DNA from: Candidatus Multivoradales bacterium
GTDB lineage: Bacteria > Acidobacteriota > Thermoanaerobaculia > Multivoradales > J023
Reading direction: 5' to 3'
Length of the DNA: 64,000 bases
Assembly (NCBI GenBank): GCA_965248925.1
Contig: CBDFLE010000005.1
Span: 704,001-768,000 of the forward strand
Shown piece after piece: positions 55,785-63,337 of this stretch (position 1 is the first letter of the stretch; each line of letters begins with the position of its first letter). The position numbers were made by a program, and so were the translations under genes. The notes beneath the pieces are model-generated. The model saw only the letters and a program-made list of their open reading frames with translations, was not told where the DNA came from and did no database searches.

Positions 55785-58700
55785 ATGAGTGACACTAAGA
55801 TCAGCGGATCAGGTGATCTTTTGGTCAAGCTGCGGCCTTCCAGCCGGCTCGGCGCGGCCGGTCGCCGCCTCGACCTCGAACCGCTGCACGATTCGCCCGT
55901 GGTCGCCCCTGGTGCGTTCGGCTTCGACGCCGCGCCGCAGTGGTTTCTGCTGCGGCGCTCCGAGGAGGCGGCATCGCCGTGGGATCAGGCCCATGCTCGA
56001 GTGGCCGCGCAACTAGGAATCGACGAGTCCGATGTGCTTTTCGCCGAGCCCGACCTCTATCATGCGGTCTATCCTGAATCTGATGCGGCTCCGGTAGGCG
56101 GAGCACTGGAGGCGGTCGGTGCCGATTGTGTGGCCCAAGCTCAAGACGGTAGGAGGGGTAAGGCTGCCAGGGCCGGCGAGTTTGCTTGGCACCTGGAGCG
56201 CGGATTCTCCCAGCTCGGCAAGGCCCGCGAGGCGGTCCACTTCGACACGCCGCGGACCCGCATCGGCCATCTCGACACCGGCTACTATCCCGCCCATGAG
56301 ACCCGCCCCGCCAACATCTTGCAGCATCTGGAAAGAAACTTCGTCGCTAAGGACGGCAATCTCTCCAACGCCGCCGATCCTGACAACAATCTGCTGTTAC
56401 TCGACAACTCAGGACACGGTACAGGCACCCTCGGAATCTTGGCCGGAGGGCCGGTCTCGGCCCATGGCGGCGAGATTCTCGGTGGTGCTCCTGAAGCGGA
56501 TATCGTTCCTATCCGCATCGCCGACAGCGTGGTCCTGCTGCGCACTAGTGCCTTGGCTCGCGCGGTGCGTTATGCCGCCGATGCCGGCTGTGCGGTGGCC
56601 ACTCTCAGTATGGGCGGGGTGCCCACCCGTGCTTGGGGCGAGGCGGTGGACGCGGCTTATGAGGCGGGCCTCTGTCTGTGCGCCGCCGCCGGCAATCATG
56701 TCGGGTTTGCGCCACCGCGCAAGCTGATCTATCCAGCCCGTTACCCGCGGGTGATCGCGGTCTGTGGGGTGATGGCCAACGGCAAGCCCTACGCCAAGCT
56801 CAAAGGCACCGCGATGGAGGGCAGCCACGGTCCAAAATCAGCCATGGCCTATGCTCTCGCCGCCTATACACCGAATATTCCCTGGGCCAAGTTTGGCTGC
56901 CCCGATGTGGTGCGGTTGAACGGCGAGGGGACTTCTAGCGCCACGCCGCAGGTGGCGGCGGCGGCGGCGCTGTGGATCGAGAAGTACAAACACCAACTGC
57001 CCGGCGATTGGCGCCGGGTCGAAGCGGTTCGCTTCGCCCTCTTCTCGTCGGCCAAGCACCCTTCGAATCTCAAGTACTTCGGTCGCGGGATAGTGCAAGC
57101 GGCGAAGGCGCTGGCGGTCAAGCCACGGCTGCACCTGGAGCGCAGCGGCCGCTCGGACAGCTCCTTTGCCTTCTTGCGGGTGGTGACTGGCCTGGGTATT
57201 GATCAGCCGACTTCGCGCGAGGAGATGTTCAACATCGAACTCGCCCAGCGCTGGCTGATGAACGACGACTTGCAGAAACTGGTACCGGACCCTGAAGCCG
57301 CCGGCGAATTGTCGGCACGGGAGCTGAAATCATTCATGGAGGCAGTGATCGAAGACCCTGACGCTTCCCATGCCTTGCGCCGCCATGTCCTCAGTCGTTA
57401 TCCGGTGGCGATCGGCCGGCCGGCGCCGAAAGCAGCGAGGATCAACCTCGAGCCCGAGCTACCGCCGGTGGGAATCGGCACCCCCAAGGTGCCAGCTCCT
57501 GCGCACCGGCGGCTGCGGGTCTACGCCCTGGATCCCAGCCTCTCGAAGCGTCTCGACACTGTCGACGTTAACGAGGTGACCCTGCGCGTGCGCTGGGAAG
57601 AACTCCGCCGCGGCCCGACTGGCGAGTACCTGCAAGTCAAGGACAAGGGGCCGCACAACTACCCTGGAGTCAATCTCAACGACCGCAGCCTGCTGGCTCA
57701 GGACGGCTGGGCGCCCTCCGAGGGCAATCCCCAGTTCCATCAGCAAATGGTCTATGCCGTGGCGATGAAGACCATCGAGCACTTCGAACGCGCCCTCGGC
57801 CGGCCAGTGCTGTGGCGGCCACGACCGAATCTCGAGAATGCCCACGACGACAGCGAATTCCTCCGTCGTTTGCAGATTCGGCCGCACGCCCTGCAGCAGG
57901 CCAATGCCTACTACAGCCCGCAGGAAGTGGCGCTGCTTTTCGGCTATTTCAAGGCCAAACGAGATAGTGGCTATTTGCCTGGCAGCCCGGTCTACACCTG
58001 CCTTTCCCACGATGTCATCGCCCACGAAACCACCCACGCCATTCTCGATGGCATGTACCGGCGTTTCAATGAGCCCACCAATGTCGATGTCTTGGCTTTT
58101 CATGAGGCCTTTGCCGACATCGTCTCTCTGCTGCAACACTTCACCATGCCCGAGCTACTAGCGCACGAGATTTCCCAAACCCGGGGCGATCTGGAAGCCG
58201 AATCAGTACTCGGTAAACTGGCGGTGCAGTTGGGCCGGGGAGCGGGCGGGCGCGGCGCCTTGCGCAATGCCATCGGTCGGGTCGAGCAGGGTGTGTGGCA
58301 CCGATTCGAGGCCGACCCCGAAGATCTGGCACAACGCCAGACGCCGCACGCCCGCGGCGCCGTGCTGGTGGCCGCCGTCTTCGATGCTTTGATCGCCATC
58401 TACAAGCAGCGCACCGCCGACCTGCTGCGCATCTCCACCGGCGGCACTGGGCTCTTGTCCGGTGGCGCCATTCATCCCGACTTGGTGCGCCGCTTGGCGG
58501 CGGAGGCCGCCAAGTCCGCCAGCCACGTCTTGGCGATGTGCATCCGTGCCCTCGACTACCTGCCACCGGTCGATGTCACCTTCTTTGACTTCCTCCGGGC
58601 GCTGATCACCGCTGATTTCGAGATGGTGGCCGATGATCGCCATAACTATAGGGTAGCTTTTGTCGAGGCTTTCAGCCGCCGGGCGATTTTCCCAGGCGAT

Positions 58701-59336
58701 CACGACGAGCAAGCTCACGAGGGCGCACGGGCCCTGTCAGTCGATACGTTGCGCTGGCAGGGGTTCAGCAAGTTCGCCATTCCCACCAAGGAACGCGGTC
58801 CGGTGATGGAGAAATACCAAGGCATTGTTGAGCAGCTGAAACGCTTTGCCGATGCCTGCCTCTATCTCAGTGATCGCGAAGTGCTCTTCCGCGAGACCCG
58901 GAAGCAGCGGATCATCCTGCACGCGCGCTTGAAGGCGGCCTTCGAGGTAGCTCCTGAGTTTGCCGAGTCCCTGGGTTTGGTTGCCGACCGCGGCTTCGAG
59001 GTCCATGCCCTGCGCCGTGCCATGCGGGTGCGGCTGGATGGTCGTGCGGCGCCACAGGTCTTTGTCTGCCTTACCCAATCGAGGCCGCTGGAGGAGCACC
59101 CGGCAAAGGGTAGGGCTCGGCGCTACTTCCGCGGTGGTTCGACCTTGGTGGTGGATCTCGCCAGGCCAGATGTTCCCAAGTACCGGATCGTCAAGAATAT
59201 CAAGAGCCACCAGCGACGCCGAGCAACAGCAGACTTCATACACACCGTCGAAGCCGACCCGCTGCGCCGGCTGTTCTTCTCGACCGACCGCGACGAGCCC
59301 TTCGCGGCTCTGCACGAACTAGCCGATGAGCATTAG
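55785..59336 (+). CDS. S8 subtilase fused to a thermolysin-like (M4/M36-type) metallopeptidase
   Basis: S8: 'HLDTG', 'GHGTGT', 'AAGN', 'GTSSATP'. Gluzincin: 'NAYY', 'HETTH', 'HEAFAD'. Confidence 0.9.
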   Translation: MSDTKISGSGDLLVKLRPSSRLGAAGRRLDLEPLHDSPVVAPGAFGFDAAPQWFLLRRSEEAASPWDQAHARVAAQLGIDESDVLFAEPDLYHAVYPESDAAPVGGALEAVGADCVAQAQDGRRGKAARAGEFAWHLERGFSQLGKAREAVHFDTPRTRIGHLDTGYYPAHETRPANILQHLERNFVAKDGNLSNAADPDNNLLLLDNSGHGTGTLGILAGGPVSAHGGEILGGAPEADIVPIRIADSVVLLRTSALARAVRYAADAGCAVATLSMGGVPTRAWGEAVDAAYEAGLCLCAAAGNHVGFAPPRKLIYPARYPRVIAVCGVMANGKPYAKLKGTAMEGSHGPKSAMAYALAAYTPNIPWAKFGCPDVVRLNGEGTSSATPQVAAAAALWIEKYKHQLPGDWRRVEAVRFALFSSAKHPSNLKYFGRGIVQAAKALAVKPRLHLERSGRSDSSFAFLRVVTGLGIDQPTSREEMFNIELAQRWLMNDDLQKLVPDPEAAGELSARELKSFMEAVIEDPDASHALRRHVLSRYPVAIGRPAPKAARINLEPELPPVGIGTPKVPAPAHRRLRVYALDPSLSKRLDTVDVNEVTLRVRWEELRRGPTGEYLQVKDKGPHNYPGVNLNDRSLLAQDGWAPSEGNPQFHQQMVYAVAMKTIEHFERALGRPVLWRPRPNLENAHDDSEFLRRLQIRPHALQQANAYYSPQEVALLFGYFKAKRDSGYLPGSPVYTCLSHDVIAHETTHAILDGMYRRFNEPTNVDVLAFHEAFADIVSLLQHFTMPELLAHEISQTRGDLEAESVLGKLAVQLGRGAGGRGALRNAIGRVEQGVWHRFEADPEDLAQRQTPHARGAVLVAAVFDALIAIYKQRTADLLRISTGGTGLLSGGAIHPDLVRRLAAEAAKSASHVLAMCIRALDYLPPVDVTFFDFLRALITADFEMVADDRHNYRVAFVEAFSRRAIFPGDHDEQAHEGARALSVDTLRWQGFSKFAIPTKERGPVMEKYQGIVEQLKRFADACLYLSDREVLFRETRKQRIILHARLKAAFEVAPEFAESLGLVADRGFEVHALRRAMRVRLDGRAAPQVFVCLTQSRPLEEHPAKGRARRYFRGGSTLVVDLARPDVPKYRIVKNIKSHQRRRATADFIHTVEADPLRRLFFSTDRDEPFAALHELADEH

Positions 59337-59568
59337 GTGGAGGCTTTCGACAGTCAACGGACCGAAGAAACTTCGCTTAGAGCCCGCGAAGAAATAACGT
59401 TTGAGTACCGAGGCCGCTCAGGCGCGTCGTTAGCAACGCCGCGAGAGGCGATGCGGGAGTGGCCGAATACCGGAACTGATTCTGTCGCAGGTCCCTAGCG
59501 TAGTTTTTCGGTCCGATGATTGTCGAAGGCCGCGGACTGCAGCGATCAGCGTTGACGCCGCGCCTCAT

Positions 59569-60651
59569 CTAGCGCCGCATCGGTGCGGTTTCGGGCTCAG
59601 TATTGCCGAGGTTTGGTAACGCGTAGACCCGGCCTTGGAAGGTGCCAACGTAGAGGGTTCCTGCTGCCCAGCTGAGGCCTCTGGCGATCCCTTCCACCCG
59701 GGTGCTCCACAGCTCCTTCCCATCTTCGAGGCTCACGGCGAGAACCCGCCCACGCTGATTGCCAAGCAGGGCCATACCGTCACCGACCCACGGTTGGTAG
59801 GCGGTCCATTCGAGTTCTGAGGTGAGTTGCCAGCGCTCGCTCAACGGATCGCCGGTGAGGCAGGCGAGCCGGTGCTGTTGGCCGACGCGGCCGAGGGCTA
59901 GCAGGCAGTCGCCAGCGCTGGTGAGGTTGCCGTAGACGAACTCTGCCCAGCGCCTCTCGCTGCGAATCTCGCCATTGGTGGCATCGAGTAGCAGGATCGT
60001 GCCGTCGAGGGTGCCAACACCGATCTGCCCCGCGAAGGCGACCAACGAGGTGTTCAGAGTCCCGCCGACGGTGCTCTGCCACAGCAATGCGCCAGCGGCA
60101 GGGTCGAGGGCATAGACGGTGGCCGAGTCGCGAAAGAAGAAGCGGCCGCCAGCGAGCACCGGGTCGCCGTTCAAAGCCTCCTTGCCGGTCTCGGTCTGGT
60201 ACTGCCAGACGGTGCGGCCGGTGGCCTGATCAAGGGCGAAGGCGCGGCCCTCGACGGTGGCGCCGAGTACCAGATTGTCGTAGGCCAGCAGGTCGCTGGC
60301 CACATCTCCGAGGCCCGCTTGCCATTGCAGCGCGCCACTGGCGAGGTCGAAGGCGTAGATCAGCCCTTCCGCTGGCCCGTCGATGTCGGTGCCGACGATG
60401 ACCCGCTGGTCAGCGACCAGCAAATCACCGTGAAAGCTGGCCGGCGGTCCGTCGGTGGCGGTGTCATAGCGCCAGCGCAGCTTTCCGGTCTCGACATCGA
60501 GGGCGTCGAGCTTGCCGGAGCAGGAGCCGATCAGCACACTGTCCCCGACGACCGCCGGGGCGATGAACACTCAGCCTCTGGATTCGTGACGCCAGCGTTC
60601 GACGGGCTGGACGGCGGTGGTCAGTAGCAGCAGTAACGGGATCAGATGCAT
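59569..60651 (-). CDS. PQQ-like beta-propeller with in-frame UGA at codon 27 (candidate selenoprotein, or nonsense allele)
   Basis: GAGGAGG RBS, ATG 60651, signal-like MHLIPLLLLLTTA, TGA at 60573-60571, then a 333-aa in-frame propeller ORF. Confidence 0.75.
60543..60560 (-). promoter_or_regulatory. Candidate bacterial SECIS hairpin
   Basis: CCCCGGC-GGUC-GUCGGGG, starting 10 nt 3' of the UGA. Confidence 0.55.
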
Positions 60652-60745
60652 GGTACCTCCTCTGTTTACTGGGTACTACGCAAGTGGCGTATAGGATGTT
60701 TGCCGGCGGTGGGCCGGCGACCAGCATCGGGTGGCTGTACCATGC

Positions 60746-63337
60746 CTAAAGCGCGCCCCTCGCCAGCCGCCGAACGATGTCGGCGAAGCGCCGTTGCAAA
60801 CACCGTCCAACTGCCTCGTAGGACAGCTCTTCAGCCACTCTCCGGCGGCCCTCGGCACCTCTCCGCAAGGCTTCCTGGCGGTTGTCGTAGATCTCACGCA
60901 AGCGCTCGGCGAGGTGCCCTTCATCGATCTCCGCCCACTTCGACCCGGCCTGGTAAGGGCCCTGGTCAGTGGCCAGCTCGACCCGCCGATAGCGCACCGG
61001 GAAACCATCGTTGAGATCAAAGAAGTCGCGCACTCCCGAGTAGGGGGCGGCGACCACCGGCTTGCCCAAGGCCATCGCCTCAACCAGGGTCAGACCGAAT
61101 CCCTCGGCACGGTGGGGCGAAGCATAGGCATCGGCAGTGGCCAGCAGGCGCCAGGTGTCGGCACGATCGAGATAGTCGTCGAGCAAATGGATCGAGGCGC
61201 CCTTGGTAGCTTCGACGAGCCGCTGATGGGCGGCAGTGGCGAAGCTGGCTTGAGAGGTCTTGAGGAGCAGCTGAACGTCGTTGTCGGGGCTGAAGGCGCG
61301 GCGAAAAGCGCGTACCAGAGCGAGCGGGTTCTTGCGCTCGAAATGACTGAGGAAGTTGAACATGTAAAGCACCACGAAGGTACTCGGAGAGAGACCGAAG
61401 TGCTGCCGGTGGGCGCTGCTGTCGACCTCGAGGTCGGCCGGTGCTTCGATGGGCAGGGGCAGCCGGCGCACCGGGATGGGTGCCGCCGAGCCGATCGCGT
61501 CGACACAGTAGACGCTCGCACTCCACACCTCGTGCAGCGGATCGAAGGCCCGTGCCCAGCGGCGGGGGAATTCTTCCATCTCCCACAGCCAGTAGCCGAT
61601 GTTGAAACGACCGCCGAGAACCTCGCCGCCGAGCCGGGTGGTCACCGGCCCGACCTGGTCGGCGTTGACCACCAGTAGGTTGATGTCGTAGGGAAGGTCG
61701 CTGCTGCTGGCGGCGATGCTGAGGTCTTGCTGGCGGGCGACGACTCCCAAATCTAGCTTGTGCAAGGAGAATGGAATGGTTGTGGTATCGAGTGCCCGTG
61801 CCAGCCCGCGGGCTGCTTCGCCCATGCCGGTCTCGGCCTCTAGATAGCCCACCAGGTTGATTCCCGGATGATCCAGCCGCCGGGGCAGGGGCGCTCTCCG
61901 GGGGGCGCACCCTGGCTGACCGGTAGCTTCGGCGACAGCTCGCTTAGGGCGCAGCCATCGCTTGAGGGCGCGGCTGCGTTCAGCTCCCAGCAGTGTCTTC
62001 AGCCTGCCTTTGCCGGAGATCGCCAGAGGTGATCTCCAGGCCCGTTTGGCGCGGTTTCGCAGCCTTCTCTTCAAGCCGGCGGCGGTGAGCAGAGAAGCGC
62101 GCGATTCGCGGTGCAGCCCGCTCAGCAAGGGTTCGTCCAGGCCCAGCTCGTAGCGGCCATAGTCCCGCAGCCAGGAGGAGAACTCGGCCAACGAAGCCCG
62201 CTCGGGGTCGGGAAAGTCGGCATGCAGGTCAGGCCTGCTCGCCCACAAGTGGCTGAGCAGGCGGCTGAGGTAGGGCGGCCGAGCTTTCCTAGTGCCAGCC
62301 GGCGCGGTGAGCCAGGCGAAGAAGCTGTCGGCAGAATCAGTGGCGAAAGGGTTGCCGAAGTGCCGTCGCCGCTGCTCGTCGAGCGCCAGGTAGAGCCGTC
62401 GGGCGGCGGGTGGGATTCGCACGCCGTTGTCAAACCGGGCGAAGGCGAAGGGCCAGCCCTTGCAATCGGCCCAACCCTCGGCGAAGAGGCGGTCGCGGTA
62501 GCGCCGGTAGAGTTCGGCGGCCTCGCCAATTTGGTCCAGGGTAAAGCGGTCCTGATGCTTGGAAACGTGCTGCAAGGCGTCGGGCTGAATACCACTGAAG
62601 TGAAAGAAGATCAGCGGCCGGCCGTTGACCTGCGCCACCTCGCCATCCAAGCTCACCCTGCGGCCATGGAGATTCCAATAGGCCACGTTGTAACCCGGAT
62701 CGCGCAGGATGTGAACTCCGGAGAATAGGCCAGGCACCAGATCGATCCACTTTTGATCGACGAACAGCCCTTGATCGATGCGCACCACGCATTGATCCCA
62801 CAGCCGTTCCTGCCACCAGCGCAGCAGACGCCGAGTCTCGTCGCTGTGCCGCAGGCCGATGAATCCCAGGTTGTAGGTACCGCTCTGCAGGATGCTCTGC
62901 TCGCCGGGGTGAGCGTCGTCCTCGATCGGCTGATCGAGATGGGGGGTTAGCACTACCTGATGCTCGCCCAGCAGGCGATCGAGCTCGCCCAAGTCGCCGC
63001 TGATCCAGATGTCGGGGTCGATGTAGAGCAAGCGCTCGACGCCGTGATGTTCGAAAAGGTGTTCGAGGAAGTAGGGTTTTGCCGCTGTATTGCCTTCGAG
63101 CACGGTGTATTTGAAAAGGAATCCAGCGCGTTCGGGGATCTTAAGCTGTTCCACTTCGAGCAGTTCGAAAGGCTCGTCCGAGTCGTCGATAAAGCCTTCG
63201 TTGCGGTCGTAAAGCAGCACGAAGAAGTGCCCGGCCGGGTGGCTGTCGGCGAACGAACGAGCCAACACCCGCGCGAACGGCAGGTAATTCTTCGACACGA
63301 TGGTGCAGGCGTCTAGGGGCATCGTTCTGTTCTGCAA
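60746..63337 (-). CDS. Two-domain glycosyltransferase (GT-A-like N-domain + GT4-like C-domain)
   Basis: 'YIDPDI', 'YNLGF', 'DQKWIDL', 'YNVAYWNL'; 'ERKNP', 'HRAEGFGLTLVEAMALGKPVV'. Confidence 0.9.
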   Translation of the reverse strand: MQNRTMPLDACTIVSKNYLPFARVLARSFADSHPAGHFFVLLYDRNEGFIDDSDEPFELLEVEQLKIPERAGFLFKYTVLEGNTAAKPYFLEHLFEHHGVERLLYIDPDIWISGDLGELDRLLGEHQVVLTPHLDQPIEDDAHPGEQSILQSGTYNLGFIGLRHSDETRRLLRWWQERLWDQCVVRIDQGLFVDQKWIDLVPGLFSGVHILRDPGYNVAYWNLHGRRVSLDGEVAQVNGRPLIFFHFSGIQPDALQHVSKHQDRFTLDQIGEAAELYRRYRDRLFAEGWADCKGWPFAFARFDNGVRIPPAARRLYLALDEQRRRHFGNPFATDSADSFFAWLTAPAGTRKARPPYLSRLLSHLWASRPDLHADFPDPERASLAEFSSWLRDYGRYELGLDEPLLSGLHRESRASLLTAAGLKRRLRNRAKRAWRSPLAISGKGRLKTLLGAERSRALKRWLRPKRAVAEATGQPGCAPRRAPLPRRLDHPGINLVGYLEAETGMGEAARGLARALDTTTIPFSLHKLDLGVVARQQDLSIAASSSDLPYDINLLVVNADQVGPVTTRLGGEVLGGRFNIGYWLWEMEEFPRRWARAFDPLHEVWSASVYCVDAIGSAAPIPVRRLPLPIEAPADLEVDSSAHRQHFGLSPSTFVVLYMFNFLSHFERKNPLALVRAFRRAFSPDNDVQLLLKTSQASFATAAHQRLVEATKGASIHLLDDYLDRADTWRLLATADAYASPHRAEGFGLTLVEAMALGKPVVAAPYSGVRDFFDLNDGFPVRYRRVELATDQGPYQAGSKWAEIDEGHLAERLREIYDNRQEALRRGAEGRRRVAEELSYEAVGRCLQRRFADIVRRLARGAL

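Follow-up and report, generated by a model that had tools for sequence, protein, structure and literature searches.

The window considered here, by which we mean the whole stretch of 64,000 nucleotides (nt) that was analysed, comes from a Candidatus Multivoradales bacterium of the Acidobacteriota (GenBank assembly GCA_965248925.1, contig CBDFLE010000005.1, positions 704,001 to 768,000), and on its minus strand it carries a gene for a PQQ-type beta-propeller protein with an in-frame UGA codon. The features of the locus are collected in Table 1. In the list of open reading frames (ORFs) the gene starts at a GTG and encodes 333 amino acids (aa), as had been observed in an initial annotation of this DNA. 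That annotation proposed that the gene begins instead at an ATG further upstream, behind a strong ribosome-binding site (RBS), and that the UGA, as codon 27 of the longer frame, specifies selenocysteine (Sec); the RBS, the ATG and the UGA are all present in the minus-strand sequence and its translation. The 26 codons upstream of the TGA encode MHLIPLLLLLTTAVQPVERWRHESRG, and the residues directly after it are VFIAPAVVGDSVLIGSCSG. Purine-rich sites comparable to the RBS also stand before the upstream starts of two orthologues, L004 and L006. Scans of positions 59300-60900 for promoter and terminator consensus sequences gave no match. Most likely the gene has been mis-annotated as a truncated BamB-like protein, and its product is instead an exported eight-bladed propeller with Sec at position 27 (Sec27).

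Table 1. Features of the propeller gene and its neighbours (positions are those of the window; amino acid numbers are those of the 360-codon frame)
Feature	Position	Strand	Description	Basis
Complete gene, proposed selenoprotein	59569..60651	-	360 codons and a TAG stop; UGA at codon 27 read as Sec; PQQ_2/BamB-like eight-bladed beta-propeller	Sequence, translation with TGA as Sec (U), Pfam, AlphaFold2 (AF2), Foldseek
Shine-Dalgarno-like GAGGAGG (RBS)	60656..60662	-	4-nt spacer, then ATG 60651-60649	Sequence
Signal-peptide-like hydrophobic N-terminus	60604..60651	-	MHLIPLLLLLTTAVQP	Translation, by eye
In-frame UGA, codon 27	60571..60573	-	Proposed selenocysteine	Column conservation and Cys alternation
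SECIS-like hairpin	60543..60560	-	7-bp stem CCCCGGC/GUCGGGG, apical loop GGUC; 17 nt from UGA to loop	
Cys44 codon (GSCSG)	60520..60522	-	Invariant partner of Sec27, 17 residues past codon 27	
His74 codon	60430..60432	-	Invariant F-H motif, D-A loop of blade 2; candidate active-site residue, role inferred	Loop from DSSP on the model
Truncated ORF as called by gene callers	59569..60570	-	Starts at GTG 60570, 333 aa; without signal peptide and first strand	
Stop TAG	59571-59569	-		Sequence
Upstream ORF	60746-63337	-	863 aa; ends 95 nt upstream of the selenoprotein start	
Downstream ORF	55785-59336	+	1183 aa; convergent with the selenoprotein gene	

The position of the UGA is conserved. In a six-frame search of 60 relatives each of the five best non-self matches had an in-frame TGA, and in four full-length orthologues (L004-L007) the TGA lies in exactly the alignment column of the one in the window. 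The window gene and these four have in common the pattern W-x3-[TS]-x-G-U-[VLI]-[FY]-x-x-P-[AT]-V ... S-C-x-G. In a search of 401 genomes of the phylum, a family profile made from the same five sequences matched 22 at E<=1e-25; the TGA was present in 11 of the 12 matches with E<=5.7e-57 and in none of the 11 weaker ones. The initial annotation had reasoned that a conserved TGA in homologues would favour Sec and a Trp would speak against it. At all 14 orthologous loci, from 13 genomes and 8 families and with 27-40% protein identity to the window, the column holds TGA; one of these loci, L039, is from an unpublished genome (G083), and the conclusion holds without it. Upstream of the TGA all 14 loci have a start codon and, judged by eye, a hydrophobic signal-like N-terminus, and a lipobox-like ...SC[AG]Q is present in several loci or family members. 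Two residues of the upstream part, W20 and G26, do not vary in this frame, either in the aligned orthologues or in the wider family set.

Metagenome contigs, scanned with a degenerate DNA pattern containing the TGA, yielded at least 120 matching stretches, of which 80 loci were examined. Both a Trp at -7 and a Cys at +17, positions left free by the pattern, were found in 73 of the 80; three of the other seven lie near a contig end, three are apparent chance matches and one is a degenerate family member. Conservation was tallied over 49 unique, near-complete members of the family, 11 of them from genomes and 38 from metagenomes: Cys44, F73-H74 and Y99-A100 are conserved in all 49, D89 and a Lys at position 111 in 48 and R324 in 47. 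The Cys that the initial annotation had pointed out 17 residues downstream of the UGA is this Cys44, which is also kept in 13 of 13 aligned orthologues.

Two loci in this set have an irregular structure. One orthologue (L037:1390-2523, in G255) contains a second in-frame TGA ('...FQDNU SSVDL...') where L038, which is 59-68% identical, has a Trp ('FQDNWYALNL'); this codon may have arisen by a nonsense mutation or a sequencing error, or it may mark another recoding site. The other, L057 (G033:C5:222600-225600), is a second copy of the family in G033 and seems to be broken: one frame contains the signal peptide and 'SWTLDTHG-TGA', 'TGA-VFVTPTV...' lies about 60 codons on in another, and the frame shifts again near the C-terminal third. 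This copy is probably a pseudogene.

The column of the UGA also alternates between Sec and Cys, a pattern that the initial annotation had named as one that would support Sec. The five-sequence profile was compared with 1.84 billion protein cluster representatives, and among the best 150 matches, which were inspected, 84 are shorter than 700 aa. The N-terminal part is missing in 81 of these 84 short relatives, and some of them, for example P0004, P0009, P0011 and P0016, begin at the residue directly after the Sec column. Truncation just past the Sec column is the usual sign of a mis-called selenoprotein gene. P0004 is identical to the 333-aa truncated form of the window protein, the form in which public protein collections list it, and here the upstream TGA is confirmed in DNA; P0005 appears, by eye, to be the truncated product of L007. 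Where truncated relatives are named in their sources, they carry the label 'outer membrane protein assembly factor BamB'. Two of the three full-length relatives, P0065 and P0074, have a Cys in the Sec column and a Cys at +17; in the third, P0108, these positions are Ala and Val, and in a genome homologue, L043, both are Ala. L043 is from an unpublished genome (G209), and P0108 backs the point about Ala forms independently. Sec and Cys thus replace one another at position 27, and where one of the two chalcogen residues is missing the other is missing as well. Trp was not seen in the Sec column among the homologues examined. A search of genome contigs with a Cys-containing peptide pattern, to which TGA forms are invisible, yielded a single locus, a kinase-fused PQQ propeller from a Poribacteria metagenome-assembled genome (MAG) (L033, JACRIR010000185.1). 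It was not counted as a member of the family; its 'DTGGCVFTAPA', similar to the Sec-site motif with Cys, is in an internal blade and there is no Cys at +17.

Directly 3' of the UGA is the hairpin which the initial annotation had described as resembling a selenocysteine insertion sequence (SECIS). It starts 10 nt past the TGA, with the stem CCCCGGC (60560-60554), the loop GGTC (60553-60550) and the stem GTCGGGG (60549-60543). The consensus model of bacterial SECIS elements (bSECIS) has four criteria in all, which include an upper stem of 4-16 base pairs (bp), a distance of 16-37 nt from UGA to loop and a minimum free energy (MFE) of <= -7.5 kcal/mol (PMC13188914). The window hairpin fits all four, with a 4-nt loop starting GG, 7 bp, 17 nt and -13.5 kcal/mol. 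Because the stem consists of P-[AT]-V-x-G codons, hairpins were compared with synonymous recodings drawn with each gene's own codon usage. For the window, 1000 recodings had -8.8 +/- 2.3 kcal/mol, and a fraction of 0.022 was at least as stable as the real hairpin. In the orthologues all 14 hairpins fold at <=-7.9 kcal/mol, 10 of 14 have the loop GGUC, and in 12 of 14 cases the real hairpin is more stable than its recodings are on average (mean z -1.41).

Covariation supports the stem as well. In the alignment of orthologues 79.6% of cells pair, compared with 71.5% when partners are shuffled (0/500), and double changes are found in three of the seven stem pairs, one of them a change from G-C to A-U via Ala-to-Thr on one arm and Ala-to-Val on the other. 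Of 68 unique metagenome segments, 66 have a GGTC loop, which needs G and C at two synonymous third positions, and 66 have an MFE of <=-7.5 kcal/mol; the pair made up of two third-codon positions is paired in 56 of the 68, compared with 32.8 +/- 3.9 after shuffling (0/2000).

The genome (8.0 Mb in 6 contigs, about 62% G+C) has the machinery for Sec insertion. No sel gene lies in the window, as the initial annotation had remarked, and elsewhere the genome has selA (431.7 bits), selB (TIGR00475, 352.9 bits with a cut-off of 242), selD (TIGR00476, 282 bits with a cut-off of 125) and the tRNA-Sec encoded by selC, with the anticodon tca (ARAGORN). The closest named homologues of the SelA are labelled as Acidobacteriota MAGs (64-68% identity), which is a hint at the level of the phylum only. 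TGA is the commonest ordinary stop, and of the 1672 stop-to-stop frames with 500 codons or more 1037 end in it, so the genetic code is standard and a global reassignment of TGA was rejected. All 12 other genomes with the TGA form have selA. Because selA is present in 301 of the 401 sampled genomes of the phylum, this co-occurrence is only weak evidence; the propeller selenoprotein is found in only 10 of the 401 (G000 counted). The selA tally includes the unpublished genomes G083, G108 and G209. Sec use is unusually common in this phylum.

The protein matches the Pfam family PQQ_2 (PF13360) with 160.5 bits (E 7.1e-47; gathering threshold 27.6) and the PQQ family at 4.6e-13. An AF2 model, made from an alignment of 13 sequences, is an eight-bladed BamB-like propeller with a predicted local distance difference test score (pLDDT) of 89.9 and a predicted TM-score (pTM) of 0.86. 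According to DSSP, Sec27 in this model is in the loop between the strands 20-23 and 33-35, and Cys44 is in the loop between the strands 38-42 and 47-52; His74 and Asp89 are in the loops of blade 2 that correspond to those of Sec27 and Cys44. Beta-propellers have their D-A and B-C loops on one and the same face, the 'top'. It is plausible that Sec27 and Cys44 lie close together, because both loops fall on one face by topology. A scan against NCBIfam returned 8 families, none of them selenoprotein-specific, and no model specific to this protein.

Taken together, these data suggest that the gene very probably is a genuine selenoprotein gene, as far as can be judged from sequence. The product would be a protein of 360 residues, exported to the periplasm or anchored by a lipid and folded into an eight-bladed PQQ_2/BamB-like propeller. 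The UGA at codon 27 would be decoded as Sec by the SelA, SelB, SelD and tRNA-Sec of the genome, directed by the downstream hairpin, which is built from the codons for P-A-V-V-G and has its loop 17 nt past the UGA. Sec27 is predicted in the loop that leads into the innermost strand of blade 1 and Cys44 in the B-C loop, on the same blade and face, where the two may form a reactive centre assisted by His74, Asp89, Tyr99 and Arg324. We regard this account as a whole, an exported propeller with Sec27 inserted by hairpin-directed decoding, as the best explanation and as highly likely to be right.

Several observations weigh against this explanation. The pattern used for the metagenomes fixes the TGA and part of the motif, so this set was selected. 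Cys homologues are scarce, 2 of the 84 short representatives, and are known as proteins only. The motif P-[AT]-V-x-G alone yields part of the hairpin, and recoded sequences still have mean energies of -4.7 to -11.7 kcal/mol; owing to the relatedness of the sequences, the shuffle statistics overstate their independence. The second stem pair is an A-C mismatch in 22 of the 68 metagenome variants (the PTVAG class), the Ala form L043 still has a 5-bp hairpin of -6.8 kcal/mol, and nothing in Rfam matched positions 60400-60700 at E<=10. Finally, a Cupin_7/DUF4437 gene, the one recurrent neighbour described below, adjoins the gene at just 3 of 13 loci, and there is therefore too little conserved context to infer a pathway.

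The initial annotation suggested that Sec27 could pair with Cys44 on one face of the propeller as a redox or metal site. The partnership is upheld indirectly: Cys44 is invariant in the Sec and Cys forms, both residues are lost in the Ala forms, and the topology of the model would place them on the same face. The form we prefer is a Sec27/Cys44 selenenylsulfide redox couple, a preference which we hold at about even chances. It is possible, if doubtful, that the Sec is real but that Sec27 and Cys44, instead of forming a redox pair, bind a metal or cofactor together with His74, as Sec does in formate dehydrogenase or [NiFeSe] hydrogenase. Such a site is suggested by the polar residues His74, Asp89, Tyr99 and Arg324, which are invariant or nearly so, and by the fusion or adjacency of some members to metal-associated folds (ChaN-like PF04187, glyoxalase/VOC and the Cupin_7 neighbour at 3 of 13 loci); metal centres on this face are also known from propeller enzymes. 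However, the matches to the fusion domains are weak and concern few members, and a redox couple would account just as well for the 16-residue spacing of the two chalcogen residues and for their being lost together.

Some members of the family have C-terminal extensions, which are possible hints at function. These are L036:1411-3321 (G380), P0009, P0016 and P0020. The extension is a domain of about 260 aa with weak ChaN/Tiki-like matches (PF04187, 22-28 bits, near the cut-off); P0020 has a glyoxalase/VOC domain (43.8 bits) in its place.

The remaining alternatives deny the Sec itself. The UGA might be read by a near-cognate tRNA, that for Trp or Cys, or by some other programmed read-through and not by Sec-tRNA, which we think very improbable. 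A hairpin could in principle stimulate generic read-through, the selenium in the protein is deduced from sequence, and the co-occurrence with selA is, as said, weakly informative; but the genome has the full Sec machinery and selA is present in 12 of 12 other TGA-form genomes, the spacing and loop of the hairpin fit a SelB-type model, and the column alternates with Cys, the typical pattern of a Sec site, with no Trp in the homologues examined.

It is very improbable that the UGA is a real stop, which would end a leader peptide of 26 residues and leave the propeller to be translated separately from GTG 60570. In favour of this reading, the codon right after the TGA is a GTG in the window and in 7 further orthologues, the gene callers yield this form, and TGA is the commonest stop of the genome. 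The product, however, would have neither a signal peptide nor the propeller's first strand. At 6 of the 14 loci the TGA is followed by CTN or ATC, and not by ATG, GTG or TTG; re-initiation right past the stop therefore cannot be general. W20 and G26 upstream of the UGA are kept in frame across orthologues of 27-40% identity, and two homologues are continuous, with Cys in place of the stop. A sequencing error or pseudogene, that is, a change of TGG to TGA in an ordinary BamB-like gene, needs only a single change and recalls the second TGA of L037 and the disrupted copy in G033, but is effectively refuted by the comparative data, with TGA in the same column at 14 loci of 13 genomes and at 73 of 80 metagenome loci, by an otherwise intact frame and by the assemblies of three sequencing runs, in which positions 60300-60800 show 0 differences from the window at depths of 9-17 (one sample, possibly the source of this DNA). 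As the contigs of the three runs match, the TGA is not an error of a single assembly.

The genes on either side give little further context. The upstream ORF, on the same strand, resembles GT4-type glycosyltransferases in its C-terminal third, including the model 'GT4-conflict' (2.3e-12), and its N-terminal part of about 650 residues has no Pfam match at E<=0.001. The downstream ORF has an S8 subtilase domain at its N-terminus (1.9e-23); it also has a long C-terminal region with an HExxH-like motif, 'HETTH'. Across the 13 loci compared, L056 being left out, a Cupin_7/DUF4437 protein adjoins the selenoprotein gene in three, from two families (L037:802-1356, L038:2550-3041 and L040:2609-3079; 56-67% identity), and no other recurrent neighbour was found.

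The initial annotation knew of no BamB- or PQQ-like propellers as an established selenoprotein family, and this agrees with the catalogue in a review from 2026, which covers 119 prokaryotic selenoprotein families and subfamilies (PMC13188914); its Table 1, in the main article, lists no PQQ, propeller or BamB-like family, and the terms PQQ, propeller, quinoprotein and WD40 are absent from its main text. The same terms are absent from the main texts, as distinct from the supplementary tables and databases, of deep-Sep (PMC12013277), BSepDB (PMC13326102), the GOS study (PMC2398784), a review from 2022 (PMC9312934) and a preprint (10.1101/2022.07.06.499078). Full-text literature searches that paired selenoprotein with PQQ-like found no relevant paper, and among the papers listed for selenocysteine and BamB the latter, where recognised, is a subunit of benzoyl-CoA reductase or otherwise unrelated.

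Judged from these sequences, the family is very probably widespread in soil bacteria, dominated by Sec forms and usually mis-annotated, and no entry for it was found in current catalogues. We lean slightly towards a broader proposal, in which the window protein would be the founding example of a family of exported propeller selenoenzymes that has so far gone unrecognised, in which Sec predominates and which is common in bacteria of soils and sediments, probably Acidobacteriota for the most part. It would be the first selenoprotein on a beta-propeller. Its U-x16-C chemistry would be extracytoplasmic and unlike that of the thioredoxin-fold UxxC/CxxU proteins, for example the turnover of sulfur or selenium compounds or of peroxides, or catalysis by a Se-ligated metal. 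If this is true, a structurally new class, an exported beta-propeller, joins the bacterial selenoproteome, a large family has been systematically mis-annotated, with at least 81 clusters at 50% identity recorded as truncated BamB-like proteins, and abundant soil bacteria carry out selenium-dependent chemistry outside the cytoplasm. As Cys forms are rare, the family would have been missed by searches that depend on Cys homologues, and it may be an example of a blind spot in selenoprotein discovery by Cys homology. A single tryptic peptide, G26-K47, holds both Sec27 and Cys44 and makes a clear test case.

The closest structural matches of the window protein are BamB chains. BamB (YfgL) is likewise an eight-bladed propeller of PQQ_2 type, and the top Foldseek matches of the model are 7tt2_B, 8orr and 3prw (TM 0.79-0.82, 21-23% identity). 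BamB is an exported lipoprotein of the beta-barrel assembly machine, and the window protein is also predicted to be exported, some family members having lipobox-like signals. The window protein is below the equivalog cut-offs for BamB, however, with 128 bits against 285.2 for TIGR03300 and 85.2 bits against 423 for NF008351, and the family is set apart by the invariant set of U27, C44, H74, D89 and Y99. To our knowledge BamB has neither a Sec or Cys pair nor a catalytic centre. With the PQQ-dependent alcohol and glucose dehydrogenases the window protein has the type of propeller repeat in common, but it is much shorter and scores 59.8 bits against a cut-off of 480 for TIGR03075 and 32 bits against 832.65 for TIGR03074. 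The tetrathionate hydrolase of Acidithiobacillus ferrooxidans is an extracytoplasmic enzyme acting on sulfur compounds; it is not known to contain Sec, and its catalytic residue is an Asp. Its eight-bladed propeller (6l8a, 7cqy) lacks PQQ and is aligned to the model by Foldseek with TM 0.75-0.76 at only 18-20% identity, and by analogy it offers a precedent for chalcogen chemistry on a propeller scaffold.

With the bacterial selenoproteins that have a SECIS within the ORF, such as FdhA and the Prx-like and DsbA-like proteins, the window gene has in common the in-frame UGA and a hairpin directly 3' of it that fits the bSECIS model, and the family also resembles bacterial selenoproteins in the alternation of Sec and Cys, in a nearby Cys as the likely resolving partner and in genes that are truncated in databases. 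The differences are that most catalogued families are thioredoxin-like, according to PMC13188914, whereas this one is a beta-propeller; that the motif is U-x16-C and not UxxC or CxxU; and that almost all selenoproteins are said, in one of the papers considered, to have numerous Cys homologues, compared with 2 of 84 here. Sec insertion itself follows the ordinary bacterial mechanism; the novelty lies in the scaffold, in the U-x16-C centre and in how scarce the Cys forms are.

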